Assembly (NCBI GenBank): GCA_017620845.1
Contig: JAGAUJ010000003.1
Coordinates: forward strand, 46,136-110,135
DNA length: 64,000 nucleotides
Direction: 5' to 3'
Source: Rickettsiales bacterium
GTDB lineage: Bacteria; Pseudomonadota; Alphaproteobacteria; Rickettsiales; UBA1997
Part shown: positions 5,729-8,593 of the stretch, piece by piece
Position numbering within the stretch: position 1 is the stretch's first letter
Layout of the letters: each line of letters begins with the position of its first letter
The notes under the pieces: model-generated
Told to the model about the DNA's origin: nothing
Database searches by the model: none
What the model saw: only the letters and a program-made list of their open reading frames with translations
Position numbers and translations under genes: made by a program

Positions 5729-6244
5729 TTAAAACCACTCATTTATTACTTCGTCCGCACATTCACAAATAATATTTTGATAATACTCTTTAAATTGCTG
5801 TTTATCTTCTATTAAGTCATAATTCATTAAGAATGTATTGTTATTATCTTCTAATCTAAATAAATAAAAAGGTAACTGTTCTTGTAGACTATAAAAACAT
5901 TTTTCTATTATATCTTTATTTATTATTAATTCTGTATTATTGTTATTTAATATTACTTTTATTTGTATAAACAAATTACATAATGCTTGTATGTCATTAC
6001 TATTGTTACCATTTATATATGTTTTTACTTTATTATCAAATATTTCACAATATTTGTTAAATGTGTTGTAGTCTTTTTTGGATATGGACATTAATATTGT
6101 TTTTAATGTTAGTTTTAATCTGTTTATATTTGTATTGTTATTGTTGATAACGATATATAAACTTATGGTATCTTTGGCTATTTCTTTTATTTTTTGTTTG
6201 GTGTAGTTAAGGTTTAAAGAATTTACTAACATATATTTCCTCAT
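5729..6244 (-). CDS. Hypothetical protein (third gene of the orphan operon)
   Basis: 171-aa Asn-rich ORF with no motif I recognise. It lies 35 nt downstream of the 654-aa ORF on the same strand. Confidence 0.55.
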   Translation of the reverse strand: MRKYMLVNSLNLNYTKQKIKEIAKDTISLYIVINNNNTNINRLKLTLKTILMSISKKDYNTFNKYCEIFDNKVKTYINGNNSNDIQALCNLFIQIKVILNNNNTELIINKDIIEKCFYSLQEQLPFYLFRLEDNNNTFLMNYDLIEDKQQFKEYYQNIICECADEVINEWF

Positions 6245-6279
6245 TTATAGTTTTATGTAATATTTTTTATCTTTATTAT

Positions 6280-8244
6280 TTAAATAATACCCCCACCCAC
6301 CCCACTGTGTAAATCTTGTTGCCTACTCTTGCCATCATCTAGTTGTTGTGTAATTTTGTTGGTTTGTTCTTTGGTTTCTGGAGATGGTGATGGTTGGGGG
6401 ATAGTTGTAGGCAAAGTTAATAAAACTTTATTCTTACTTTCTGCAATATCATCATTATATATTAATATCTCCTCATATGCTTCAAGCTCATTGTTATTTT
6501 GTTTTTGTGTATTTATGGTTTGTTGTTTGAAATAAATTTCTTTAATAATGTTTAAGTTAAATAATGTTATAAATTCTTCTACTTTAGTAAGTTCACACTT
6601 TTGTATGAAATCTTCAACAGACATTTCTTTATTGGAAGTTAATAACAACTCACATATGGTATTTTTTACCAACCCTAAATGCTCAATTTGTTTTTTTCGT
6701 AATGACTCTTTATCAATACCTTGTTTTAAACATTCATCAAGTTGTGTACGTATTTTTTCTTTCTCTTTTCCATTAATGTTTTCAATAATCTTATCACGTT
6801 CATTTTCATTCATTGAAACCAATTCATCATAAAATTTTAATATTTCTTCTTTTTGTTTCATTAATTTTTCTGTTTTATTAACAAATAGTACCAATGGTCT
6901 CAATTTCTCCTGTTTTTTACTTTGTGCTTCTAACTCCTTCATAAGTTCTTCTTTGATTGTTTTTTGTTCTTCTGTTGATAGACAATTGATTAAATTACGA
7001 ATATTTACAAATCTATTATTATAACAATTTTTATTTATGCCATACTTTTCACTTCCTATATTAAACACAATATAGCCATCATTATTTGTTTCGTTTTCAC
7101 TAATTTTTTTAACCGTTTCCCTACCCTGTTCATCAAATATTTGTGACATTATACAACAAGCCTCACATATTAATGAACCATCATTTATGGCATTTTTTAT
7201 TGATTCCATACTTGTATATTTTTCTGGATTCATAACTATGGCCTCCATAAAAGAATCAACCCAATAAGAACAACAACCATTAATCTGCAATGGATTAGTA
7301 AGCAGTACACTTATTTCCTTATTATCAAAATCATTAAAAATATCTGTTATTACTTGTACATGTTGTAATGATGTATCTATTAAAGAATATAAATATGTAG
7401 TGGTATTATCATTTGTCTTTTCTACAATCAATAAAGTGGCATGATTTTTTGCTCCAATTGGAATAAGTGATAGACCATTTGTTGTTGTCATATTATTTAC
7501 TGTCTGTTTTGAAAATTTACCCTTAATCGCTGTTGGTATTACCTTACATCGATAATTAAAATTTTGCTCAGACATAATTGCTGATATTAAAGGTGTCTTT
7601 GGTACACTACCAGTTACTTGATAACCTTGTTTATCTTTGTAATAATCATTGTAAGCTGAGTGAATTTTGGAGAGAAAACACAATTGTTCTTCCTTGGTTT
7701 CAAATTGCACACCGTCTTGTACATTTACCTTATACATATTATTATCACATAATATCAAATTAACATCATTATAATTATATTCAAACAAAATAAAATTACG
7801 CTCTTCGTTTGTAAGGATACAATGTGGGGTGTTTGGTACAACAAAAAAGTCAAAATCGGCAACCACAACTTTATATTTATCTATTTGTATTGCTAAATTT
7901 CTAGTAACTCGTGTCTTACAAACATTTATTTTTGCTATACTATTAATTTCAATATTACGTAACGCACACAATAGTTCAGCAATAAACTTACTAGAATTCT
8001 CATTAGGGGATGGTTGTTGGCTTATCAAATAATTACTGTATCCTTCTTGTAACATCTTTAAACTCTCGTCATCATAATTAACAAATAACGATTTACATAG
8101 ACTACCTATATTTTCATTGTTTATTACACAATGAACAACATATTTAGAATCATCACCAATGTCGTATGTTATATTAAACAACGCAGAACCATTATTTGCT
8201 TTGCAGACAGTCCCCTCTCCAAATTTTTCTTCCATACCAATCAA
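6280..8244 (-). CDS. Hypothetical protein with a clan CE (Ulp1-like) cysteine-protease-type motif; candidate effector
   Basis: 654-aa ORF with ordered motifs GAKNH(268)ATLLIV, YSLID(290)TS and NPLQ(320)INGCC(324/325)SYWV. Codons were checked on the minus strand: His 7441-7443, Asp 7375-7377, Gln 7285-7287, Cys 7270-7275. The C-terminal 250 aa are Lys/Glu-rich and coiled-coil-like. The existence of the CDS is solid; the functional call is tentative. Confidence 0.45.
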   Translation of the reverse strand: MIGMEEKFGEGTVCKANNGSALFNITYDIGDDSKYVVHCVINNENIGSLCKSLFVNYDDESLKMLQEGYSNYLISQQPSPNENSSKFIAELLCALRNIEINSIAKINVCKTRVTRNLAIQIDKYKVVVADFDFFVVPNTPHCILTNEERNFILFEYNYNDVNLILCDNNMYKVNVQDGVQFETKEEQLCFLSKIHSAYNDYYKDKQGYQVTGSVPKTPLISAIMSEQNFNYRCKVIPTAIKGKFSKQTVNNMTTTNGLSLIPIGAKNHATLLIVEKTNDNTTTYLYSLIDTSLQHVQVITDIFNDFDNKEISVLLTNPLQINGCCSYWVDSFMEAIVMNPEKYTSMESIKNAINDGSLICEACCIMSQIFDEQGRETVKKISENETNNDGYIVFNIGSEKYGINKNCYNNRFVNIRNLINCLSTEEQKTIKEELMKELEAQSKKQEKLRPLVLFVNKTEKLMKQKEEILKFYDELVSMNENERDKIIENINGKEKEKIRTQLDECLKQGIDKESLRKKQIEHLGLVKNTICELLLTSNKEMSVEDFIQKCELTKVEEFITLFNLNIIKEIYFKQQTINTQKQNNNELEAYEEILIYNDDIAESKNKVLLTLPTTIPQPSPSPETKEQTNKITQQLDDGKSRQQDLHSGVGGGII

Positions 8245-8269
8245 CTTAAATTAAAACAACAACCACAAA

Positions 8270-8593
8270 TCAAAACAAATCACTAAAATTGTCCTCAAAA
8301 GACAAGTCTGGCTCATCAACACCAGGCAACCCCCTATACTTCTCTTCCCACAATTTTAATCTTTCTTTTTCTTCTTCTTCTCTTCTCAATTCATCTCTCA
8401 TTAATTGTTTTTCTTTTTCTGTTGCTGATCTTGTTAGTACTAGTTTATATTCTGCTGAATACACATCAACTTTACAGTTATTATATAAAACCAAACTACT
8501 ACCATCCCCAAGATATATATTCAACATACATGTGGCCGGATCCAAGGTATCAGTTATTAGATTAACTGGTTGAGAAGTTATATTATATGTCAT
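8270..8593 (-). CDS. Hypothetical small protein with an acidic C-terminal tail (first gene of the orphan operon)
   Basis: 107-aa ORF lying 25 nt upstream of the 654-aa ORF. It has a charged REEEEKERLK segment and an acidic tail DEPDLSFEDNFSDLF. Confidence 0.55.
   Translation of the reverse strand: MTYNITSQPVNLITDTLDPATCMLNIYLGDGSSLVLYNNCKVDVYSAEYKLVLTRSATEKEKQLMRDELRREEEEKERLKLWEEKYRGLPGVDEPDLSFEDNFSDLF

Follow-up and report, generated by a model that had tools for sequence, protein, structure and literature searches.

The window analysed in this study was a stretch of 64,000 nucleotides (nt) from a Rickettsiales bacterium (GTDB lineage Alphaproteobacteria; Rickettsiales; UBA1997), taken from GenBank assembly GCA_017620845.1 (contig JAGAUJ010000003.1, positions 46,136 to 110,135 of the forward strand). 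Between gyrA and trpS it carried an inserted locus, in which a gene for a small protein of 107 amino acids (aa) stood directly upstream of a gene for a large protein of 654 aa. The core of the large protein showed the fold of clan-CE cysteine peptidases and an invariant set of catalytic residues, the small gene accompanied the large one at every informative locus, and the pair was hypervariable between strains. The locus represented a previously unrecognised CE-fold family and a novel obligate partner family, which together behaved as a mobile, rapidly diversifying accessory module. This two-gene module may encode a secreted CE-type isopeptidase effector and its cognate binding partner, a reading to which we give a probability of about 0.45. 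A third gene followed the pair on the same strand, and the preliminary description of this stretch had treated all three as one operon with a toxin-antidote-like organisation.

The large protein consisted of a lineage-specific N-terminal domain (residues 1-182, numbered here and below in the 654-aa frame), a CE-like core (183-432), and a coiled-coil and low-complexity C-terminal region (433-654). Neither a signal peptide nor a transmembrane segment was found in it. The family was very rare. A word-indexed search of 5.8 billion proteins returned only two homologues (88% and 61% identical), and an exhaustive HMMER profile search of 1.84 billion cluster representatives gave 22 clusters in total; 20 of these were distant (about 20-29% identical), and their alignments all started at residue 183 or later. 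Pfam, NCBIfam, PADLOC, and PHROGs gave nothing meaningful for the large protein, and Pfam domains were absent from 10 full-length relatives as well. In particular, neither the window protein, nor the 10 relatives, nor 17 family cores matched Peptidase_C48 (PF02902). The PDB sequence searches with the large protein and with a 23-member family profile yielded only coiled-coil noise or insignificant matches. In addition, a contig scan with the alignment of the close homologues found no relatives, its patterns coming from the lineage-specific N-terminus and hence being insensitive, and a degenerate DNA pattern for the Cys motif hit 11 loci in metagenome contigs, all of them chance matches.

Among the 17 aligned cores, those from outside the species shared only 23-43% identity with the window protein. 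Across all 17, seven columns were invariant: H268, D290, S292, Q320, C325, F370, and D371. Clan CE is characterised by catalytic residues that follow one another as His - Asp/Glu - (Gln) - Cys (PMC6133264), and the core showed this order with spacings of 22, 30, and 5 residues. The local motifs of the family were 'PIxxxxHATxLxID', 'xDSSLxH', and 'LQINGxCSYW'. The counterpart in human SENP1, the sequence of which was verified as identical to PDB 2iyc_A, reads 'HLGVHW...YYDS...QQMNGSDCGMF', so that LQINGxCSYW parallels QQMNGSDCGMF. Furthermore, the family possessed a conserved extra C-terminal subdomain, in which F370-D371 were invariant and Y391, N410, and F412 near-invariant.

The 250-residue core was modelled with AlphaFold2 from the 17-sequence alignment, with a predicted local distance difference test (pLDDT) of 84.3 and a predicted template modelling score (pTM) of 0.87; the full-length model from a 3-sequence alignment was unusable (pLDDT 38.8). 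In the core model, the His lay at the start of a strand, the Asp just past the end of the adjacent strand, and the Cys at the N-terminus of a helix, the arrangement of the CE fold. The model was compared with 350,542 PDB chains by Foldseek. No chain matched at E ≤ 1e-3, and the best 50 matches were clan-CE enzymes without exception (50/50). The deubiquitylase (DUB) domain of Wolbachia CidB ranked first (E 1.2e-3, probability 0.99). The other matches were SseL, XopD (probability 1.00), OtDUB, ChlaDub1, NopD, SENP1, SENP5, SENP7, Ulp1/Ulp2-like proteases, poxvirus I7L core proteases, the YopJ-type PopP2, and the Legionella effector Lem17 in its inositol hexakisphosphate (IP6)-bound form. These matches were weak, with TM-scores of 0.3-0.4 and identities of 7-13%. 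The BFVD viral library gave one significant unnamed match and weak matches to poxvirus proteases. Moreover, hhalign of the family core against SENP1 produced one local alignment of 37 columns, which covered the catalytic hairpin only and paired the His and the Asp each with its SENP1 counterpart (E 0.009; probability 4%, SENP1 being a single-sequence template). With scores this low the relationship is remote, but a list of 50 fold matches so uniformly clan CE is not due to chance. From the modelled core, we conclude that the large protein represents a new, very divergent CE-fold family with an intact catalytic set, outside C48, C55, and C57. The remark in the preliminary description that the protein was CE-protease-like was thus borne out at the level of motif and fold.

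The fold is shared by enzymes of different chemistry. The core might be a YopJ-type acetyltransferase, or a dual enzyme like ChlaDUB1, which would acetylate host proteins through the same His/Asp/Cys site. PopP2 and IP6-bound Lem17 were indeed among the fold matches with long alignments, and both dedicated acetyltransferases and dual enzymes are known among CE effectors (PMC4961225, PMC10942603). However, the probabilities for PopP2 (0.28-0.82) were lower than those for the DUB and ULP enzymes (0.99-1.00), the YopJ Pfam model (Peptidase_C55) was not matched, and the invariant Gln five residues before the Cys, in 'Q-x-N-G-x-C', was Ulp1/SENP-like. We therefore regard an acetyltransferase as improbable. 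As the DUB and ULP matches outscored the YopJ-type ones and the Q-x-N-G-x-C motif resembled that of Ulp1, hydrolase chemistry is more likely than acetyl transfer on the modelled fold.

The domains around the core varied within the family. The N-terminal 182 residues of the window protein (7699-8235) had no counterpart in the distant members, most of which shared an N-terminal region containing 'IGYR[FY]Y' instead. The lineage of the window seems to have exchanged its N-terminal domain and flipped the partner gene. In addition, P0003, P0004, P0012, and P0018 had a common extra C-terminal domain, 'I[IS]FKT[DN]...IFRDIE[EQ]I[RQ]IT[IL]P...EY[IL]..L', which was missing from the window protein.

The small protein was acidic with an acidic C-terminal tail, as had been described (isoelectric point (pI) 4.46, net charge -9.5). 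It comprised a beta-rich N-terminal region with a GDG...NNCKV motif, a charged 'T-E-x-E-K' helix, and the tail, which ran to ...FSDLF. The protein was identical to NCBI MBO4956271.1 (J6C50_00320), annotated as a hypothetical protein, and gave no match in Pfam, NCBIfam, PADLOC, PHROGs, or the PDB by sequence; a profile of the partner family likewise yielded only noise or insignificant matches in the PDB. A homologous gene of 93-111 aa was located immediately upstream of the large gene in 8/8 informative loci, namely the window, L001, L084, L085, L086, L106, L107, and L108/L109 (L087 and L105 had too little upstream sequence to be counted). The homology was supported by BLASTP of the window protein against the small genes beside distant members (1e-9 and 4e-5). 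A hidden Markov model (HMM) built from five partners found the three held-out partners among 764 six-frame open reading frames (ORFs), with E-values of 1.8e-17, 5.9e-10, and 6.6e-6, and nothing in the sister-species loci that lack the large gene. When the partner profile was searched against the 5.8 billion proteins, which include NCBI nr, only five clusters came back, all unnamed and of 93-111 aa; the query alignment had already contained three of them (P0025-P0027). To judge from these searches, the partner family appears to occur solely beside CE-like genes.

Most partners were acidic (6/8, pI 4.4-5.1). The features common to the family were a beta-rich N-terminal half ('GD..YYNDG'), a charged helix starting from 'MTEEEI', and a C-terminus with an aromatic residue after Gly or acidic residues (...GRTYW, ...GRTW, ...ERTYF, ...SDLF). 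An LC3-interacting or SUMO-interacting type of motif (LIR or SIM) in the tail was considered and dropped, as the tail motif was not conserved across the family. The partner was conserved across enzymes with unrelated N-terminal domains; since these domains differ, the shared core is the most economical candidate for the surface that would bind it.

The layout of the pair was not constant. At six loci (L084 with P0003, L085 with P0004, L086 with P0007, L106 with P0010, L107 with P0011, and L108/L109 with P0014), the partner genes encoded 93-101 aa and lay on the opposite strand, their starts 68-207 bp away from those of the large genes. The co-directional, tight layout was restricted to the window and L001, and it is the derived state of a single lineage. 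Therefore, the tight operon-like arrangement stressed in the preliminary description stands for this locus, but it is lineage-specific, and the divergent order of the six other loci is unusual for toxin-antitoxin modules. A shared intergenic region of 68-207 bp between divergent genes is typical of regulator-target pairs, and the small protein might accordingly control transcription of the large gene, or merely be encoded beside it, and not bind the enzyme at all. However, most partners were acidic and a DNA-binding domain was detected in none; the family was never found away from the large gene, and the pair was retained in the lineage of the window, though inverted to co-direction. We consider a regulator or an unrelated neighbour to be quite unlikely.

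The pair belonged to an accessory locus, which is in line with the preliminary description. In two sister species (L004 and L006, with gyrA 88% and 86% identical), trpS followed gyrA directly on the same strand, with the two genes overlapping or abutting. Since gyrA and trpS adjoin there, the 3.36-kb block between them in the window is an insertion. The arrangement of the block was kept in strain C of the same species (L001, on a contig of 160 kb). An insertion by a mobile element was rejected: no convincing terminal repeats, integrase, or transposase were found, and the composition was not anomalous. A 31-nt direct repeat (77% identical) was noticed at the edges of the block, at 5625-5655 over the gyrA stop and at 8947-8977 shortly before trpS; it may be what is left of the ancestral gyrA-trpS junction, or else a chance similarity in AT-rich DNA.

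Three allele classes of the locus were distinguished: A (the window, L088, and L089), B (L003 and L091), and C (L001 and L002). Between the window and L001, identity changed sharply along the sequence. The trpS/uvrA side (8600-17300) was 97-100% identical, at least 99% in most comparison windows, with an indel of about 1 kb at 10447-10531, and the gyrA side (1-5700) was mostly 92-97% identical (range 83-97%). Within the block, the third gene (~5800-6200) was 99% identical, the C-terminal region of the large gene (~6400-7000) 55-59%, part of the core (7400-7600) 99%, and the N-terminal region of the large gene together with the 3' part of the partner gene (~7800-8400) 61-74%. Synonymous divergence (dS) and the ratio of nonsynonymous to synonymous divergence (dN/dS) between alleles A and C, obtained by the Nei-Gojobori method, followed the same pattern. 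The dS and dN/dS values were 1.22 and 0.33 for the N-terminal region of the large gene, 1.72 and 0.39 for its C-terminal region, 0.086 and 0.41 for core residues 181-300, and 0.75 and 0.46 for the whole large gene. The corresponding values were 0.69 and 0.15 for the partner gene, 0.31 and 0.024 for gyrA, 0.028 and 0.126 for trpS, and 0.014 and 0.232 for uvrA. Altogether, dN/dS of the large gene ranged from 0.33 to 0.76, compared with 0.024 for gyrA in the same genome pair. With dN/dS of 0.15 for the partner gene and about 0.5 for the large gene, both genes are real and under purifying selection, and the large gene was about twenty-fold less constrained than housekeeping genes. The possibility that these genes are pseudogenes or chance ORFs was ruled out by dN/dS and conservation. 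The alleles of the large gene are either far older than the surrounding genome or imports by recombination.

The divergence of the region was mosaic as a whole. In the window from 1 to 17300 compared with L001, dS was 0.31-0.38 on the gyrA/Zip side and 0.014-0.028 on the trpS/uvrA side, and the hypervariable pair was situated where the two sides meet. The mosaic is suggestive of frequent homologous recombination among lineages, the alternative being a chimeric metagenome assembly. At the indel between uvrA and trpS, strain C contained about 1.1 kb (L001 6702-7799) in place of 85 bp in the window (10447-10531). A 147-aa strain C protein encoded there consisted of two Myb/SANT DNA-binding domains, a eukaryote-like type of domain; its gene is another strain-variable, effector-like one beside the locus.

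Strain C carried a second, distantly related module, consisting of P0017 (741 aa) and a small divergent neighbour in a 2.8-kb insertion (L110 7464-10284). The insertion lay between a 298-aa gene and aroB, where the window had an unrelated 235-bp spacer (33827-34061), and its flanks were 99.0% and 97.3% identical between the window and strain C. Other family loci were found beside housekeeping genes (L108) or beside ParA-like, Mrr, and RhuM-like genes (L107, L106, and L105, respectively). These neighbours were a ParA-like ATPase with a small downstream gene (L107 456-1536), fragments of an Mrr restriction enzyme (L106 4283-4974), and a 164-aa gene that is RhuM-like by eye only (L105 2580-3071); they hint at carriage of the module on plasmids or mobile elements in other hosts.

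Hypervariable alleles, presence/absence polymorphism, obligate adjacency to a small acidic protein, and mobile-element-type neighbours at some loci (ParA-like in L107, Mrr fragments in L106) would also suit a bacteria-directed toxin-immunity pair, in which the CE-like peptidase hits a target in a competitor or in the producer and the small protein confers immunity. However, no trafficking domain of polymorphic toxins (RHS, LXG, PAAR, etc.) was recognised in any member, and the conserved centre with variable ends is the opposite of the usual layout with a conserved N-terminus and a variable C-terminal toxin. Moreover, the putative immunity gene is upstream and mostly divergent, PADLOC had no match for either protein, the structural relatives all act on eukaryotic or viral substrates, and the hosts have reduced, AT-rich genomes. 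A toxin-immunity pair thus seems unlikely.

The third gene behaved differently from the pair. Its start was probably the ATG at 6232, which is preceded by a GAGGAA ribosome-binding site and gives a protein of 167 aa. This protein was Asn-rich with an acidic C-terminus running to ...NEWF, and it was identical to MBO4956269.1 (J6C50_00310), annotated as a hypothetical protein. No match was obtained in Pfam, NCBIfam, PADLOC, PHROGs, or the PDB by sequence; the earlier statement that none of the three proteins has a housekeeping identity is in agreement with these searches. The 5.8 billion proteins contained one cluster only, with 10 near-identical variants from the same species, and no counterpart was present at any other locus of the family. 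Between strains A and C, the third protein was 99% identical, whereas the neighbouring large protein was 55% identical and its adjacent C-terminal region 32%. The chance of an open 171-codon frame at about 25% G+C, calculated from the base composition, was near 1e-7 per start.

The three genes might still constitute a single functional operon, in which the 167/171-aa protein would be a further partner of the enzyme. They lay on the same strand with a gap of 35-47 nt before the third gene, no strong terminator was found between the genes in the scan, a terminator followed only the third gene, and the third protein also ended in an acidic stretch and a terminal aromatic residue (...NEWF compared with ...SDLF). 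Co-transcription of the third gene with the pair may well occur, to judge by this layout. However, the third gene was limited to this species and absent from all other family loci, it was nearly invariant where the adjacent region of the enzyme was strongly divergent, and a promoter-like site (TTTACA-18-TATTAT, 10/12) was located just upstream of it. Because it neither co-occurs nor co-evolves with the pair, the third gene is probably outside the conserved module and a species-specific passenger, and a functional three-gene unit is hardly probable. The triplet anticipated in the preliminary description was therefore not confirmed, the third gene lying outside the co-varying block; when its distribution and synteny were examined, only the pair recurred across the family. 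Apart from this, both small proteins end in acidic and then aromatic residues (...FEDNFSDLF, 8270-8320; ...CADEVINEWF, 5729-5770), which may be a shared docking motif.

Returning to the preferred reading, the large protein would be a very divergent clan-CE (Ulp1/SENP-type) cysteine isopeptidase. In its putative active site, His268 and Asp290 would stand on a beta-hairpin, Gln320 would shape the oxyanion hole, and the nucleophile would be Cys325 at the N-terminal end of a helix. The enzyme may be exported into a eukaryotic host cell, most plausibly through a type IV secretion system, and would strip ubiquitin or a ubiquitin-like modifier from host proteins; the host would probably be a gut or rumen protist. 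In bacteria, proteins of the CE clan typically serve as secreted effectors that act on ubiquitin or ubiquitin-like proteins (PMC4961225). The variable N- and C-terminal regions would set the targeting. The small acidic partner could dock on the conserved core and, as a cognate inhibitor or a chaperone, maintain the enzyme in an inactive and/or export-competent state within the bacterial cell. Cysteine proteases beside small cognate inhibitors are an established pattern (PMC3462683), and the adjacency and co-occurrence typical of such pairs were observed here at all eight loci. The partner had no homology to known inhibitor families by Pfam, NCBIfam, or PDB sequence. Given the mostly divergent gene orientation and the lack of ubiquitin in bacteria, it may be an inhibitor, a chaperone/adaptor, a co-delivered antidote, or a regulator. 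The pair may move as a cassette into junctions between housekeeping genes and diversify fast under host pressure. The fold class, the invariant catalytic residues, the obligate pairing, the insertion, and the hypervariability were observed, and the enzymatic activity, the substrate, the export, the physical binding, and the role of the partner are inferences.

The closest species-level GTDB genomes were three metagenome-assembled genomes (MAGs) of uncultured 'Rickettsiales' or 'Alphaproteobacteria', with gyrA 85-88% identical. Identical or near-identical contigs were present in ENA assemblies named XIEF21... and LIUQ22..., names that point to ruminant gastrointestinal metagenome series, and the lineage is apparently derived from the gut or rumen. 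According to Castelli et al. 2024 (PMC10847448), the Xie 2021 rumen data set is the source of some deep-branching MAGs of Rickettsiales for which no host is known, and type IV secretion has been conserved almost throughout the order. A preprint on the symbionts of rumen ciliates does not describe the lineage. The window also encoded a PilB-type ATPase, a porin, DnaK, a Mur ligase, and a complete shikimate operon, and on account of these genes the genome appears less reduced than that of classical Rickettsia.

Several observations weigh against an exported isopeptidase with a binding partner. The Pfam models of the CE clan matched none of the 17 family cores even at E ≤ 10, and the family consensus at the catalytic His is H-A-T, compared with H-W in SENP1; the Trp of the His-Trp pair in Ulp1/SENP enzymes clamps the Gly-Gly tail. 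Ubiquitin is absent from bacteria, so a self-protecting inhibitor is not obviously needed. The divergent orientation in 6/8 loci is also compatible with a regulator, and the neighbour of P0017 matched the partner family only marginally (E 0.002-0.12). Furthermore, the PilB-type ATPase was the sole secretion-type component found in the window, no secretion signal was shown for the protein, and the lineage has no known host.

The features of the locus are listed in Table 1. The start sites of the large and third genes were taken from gene callers run on identical public contigs and from the homologues. The maximal minus-strand ORFs given before, 8593..8270 (107 aa, ATG), 8244..6280 (654 aa, TTG), and 6244..5729 (171 aa, ATG), were recovered in the ORF list with the same gaps of 25 and 35 nt, and the divergent region shared with trpS, put at 410 bp, measured 411 bp. 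The hairpin shared with gyrA was present as well, with 4 G-C among its 10 pairs.

Table 1. Coordinates of the gyrA-trpS locus in the window (ORF, open reading frame).
Feature	Positions	Strand	Basis
gyrA	2863-5640	+	ORF list
Complete inserted block between gyrA and trpS, ~3.36 kb	5641..9004		Sister-species comparison
Terminator-like palindromic hairpin where gyrA and the third gene converge	5672..5695		10-pair stem, loop of 4, T-rich tail
Third gene, 167 aa from ATG 6232 (probable start)	5729..6232	-	Gene callers; maximal ORF 171 aa from 6244
Large gene, 651 aa from ATG at 8235	6280..8235	-	Gene callers and homologues; maximal ORF 654 aa (TTG 8244)
Clan-CE-like catalytic core (predicted), residues 183-432	6949..7698	-	Invariant columns, AlphaFold2 model, Foldseek
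Candidate catalytic codons	His268 7441-7443; Asp290 7375-7377; oxyanion Gln320 7285-7287; nucleophile Cys325 7270-7272	-	Read from sequence
Partner gene, 107 aa	8270..8593	-	ORF, homologues, dN/dS
Divergent intergenic region, 411 bp, arisen through the insertion	8594..9004		Sequence and promoter scan
trpS	9005-10072	+	ORF list

The region contained three terminator-like sites compared with 0.8 expected. Promoter-like matches were not enriched overall relative to shuffles (26 found, 31 expected). The minus strand contained a perfect -35 hexamer, TTGACA, at 8651-8646, which is some 50 nt upstream of the partner gene, and the best sigma-70-like match of the region (TTGACA-17-AATAAT, 11/12) was on the plus strand at 8949-8977, 28 nt upstream of trpS. 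As real promoters, the matches in 8594-9004 are suggestive only. As trpS abuts gyrA in the sister species, a promoter of its own at 8949-8977 may be a gain after the insertion. The locus was not distinct in composition, the window having 17-36% G+C throughout.

Elsewhere in the window, the ATPase mentioned above was of the PilB/GspE type with an MshEN domain (21448-23334), belonging to a type IV pilus or to type II secretion, a feature reported for 'basal' Rickettsiales. In addition, a 304-aa minus-strand protein (26437-27351) gave a sub-threshold ankyrin-repeat match (E 1.2e-4, 23 bits compared with a cut-off of 27.3), and it may be another eukaryote-like effector candidate.

Clan-CE enzymes are major bacterial tools for rewriting ubiquitin-type signalling in eukaryotic cells. 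The present CE-like family was missed by every sequence library, and its members are annotated only as hypothetical proteins. If the pair is host-directed, it would be direct genomic evidence of a eukaryote-associated lifestyle for a lineage with no known host. Deep allelic divergence and presence/absence polymorphism point to an ongoing arms race. The 250-aa core and the 107-aa partner are a small, cleanly defined, experimentally tractable pair. No established view has so far been overturned by the finding.

Compared with other members of the clan, the window family showed the same His-Asp-Gln-Cys order, with comparable spacing, as Ulp1/SENP and the bacterial effectors SseL, ChlaDUB1, RickCE, XopD, OtDUB, and NopD. 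In the model, the predicted His/Asp beta-hairpin and the Cys at the helix N-terminus were also the same, and clan-CE enzymes were its exclusive fold neighbours. The bacterial effectors are likewise large modular proteins of intracellular or host-associated bacteria (PMC4961225, PMC6133264). The window family differed from all of these enzymes in belonging to no Pfam CE family, in having His-Ala-Thr for His-Trp, in TM-scores of only 0.3-0.4, in having one residue fewer between the Gln and the Cys, and in the extra conserved C-terminal subdomain. To our knowledge, no other CE effector has an obligate small partner gene. In the Legionella metaeffector pair LupA-LegC3, LupA is itself a CE-clan enzyme that works in a gene-linked pair; in metaeffector pairs both partners are large effectors, unlike here.

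The pair also resembled CidA-CidB of Wolbachia, the system with which the preliminary description had compared it. In both, a partner gene can stand directly upstream of a gene for a CE-domain protein in a member of the Rickettsiales, and the pair diverges as a unit. The CE-like core, with CidB as the top fold match, and the small acidic partner conserved at 8/8 loci uphold this comparison, while the lack of CidA homology and of a prophage does not. CidA is several-fold larger than the 93-111-aa partner, and the partner profile search of the 5.8 billion proteins returned nothing from Wolbachia and no relation to CidA-family antitoxins. Cid toxins carry a DUB domain of the CE/Ulp1 type, as a rule together with PD-(D/E)XK-like modules, and are encoded in the eukaryotic association module of prophage WO (PMC6133264). 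In contrast, the window locus contained no PD-(D/E)XK-like or other nuclease domains and no phage genes and was flanked by gyrA and trpS, most family loci were divergent, and the CE core was central instead of C-terminal.

These differences bear on a host-level toxin-antidote system like CidA-CidB, in which both proteins would be delivered, the CE enzyme would be toxic and neutralised by the small protein, and the alleles would define compatibility or addiction types. The strict pairing of the two gene families and their joint divergence as a cassette between strains, with flanks 99-100% identical, would suit such a system, as would the top structural match and the Rickettsiales context, since CidA binds CidB and neutralises its toxicity (PMC6133264). 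However, physical linkage alone could account for the co-variation, a fixed stoichiometry is not enforced by genes that are divergent in 6/8 loci, and neither the prophage context nor a CidA-type antidote was found. A toxin-antidote system of the CidA-CidB kind is therefore rather doubtful. A more specific variant, an independently evolved, host-directed 'addiction' system of protist-associated Rickettsiales resembling cytoplasmic incompatibility, with an allele-matched, co-delivered partner that neutralises the isopeptidase, is less probable still. If it were true, the deep alleles and the presence or absence of the second module would define compatibility types of symbiont strains. The pair was also different from type II toxin-antitoxin systems, which are small co-transcribed pairs with an autoregulating antitoxin that contains a DNA-binding domain, as the 'toxin' has 600-900 aa, the partner has no helix-turn-helix or ribbon-helix-helix motif, 6/8 loci are divergent, and PADLOC gave no match.

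Two other kinds of gene pair are comparable to a secreted isopeptidase with its binding partner. In staphopain-staphostatin, SpeB-Spi, and Bacteroides Bfp-Bfi, as in the window family, a protein of about 100 aa that is apparently beta-rich occurs only beside a cysteine peptidase. The inhibitor gene may be upstream or downstream, and the inhibitor blocks prematurely active enzyme in the cytoplasm of the producer (PMC3462683). The staphopain/SpeB-type proteases differ in being papain-like (clan CA), Sec-secreted zymogens that are co-transcribed with the inhibitor. The partner in turn has no sequence similarity to staphostatins or Spi, carries a long charged helix and an acidic tail, and is mostly divergent. 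As for effector chaperones, the partner showed no similarity to any chaperone family in Pfam or NCBIfam, and we know of no type III secretion in Rickettsiales. Nevertheless, chaperones of the SycE-YopE type share with the partner that they are small acidic proteins, specific for one effector and encoded beside it in either orientation.

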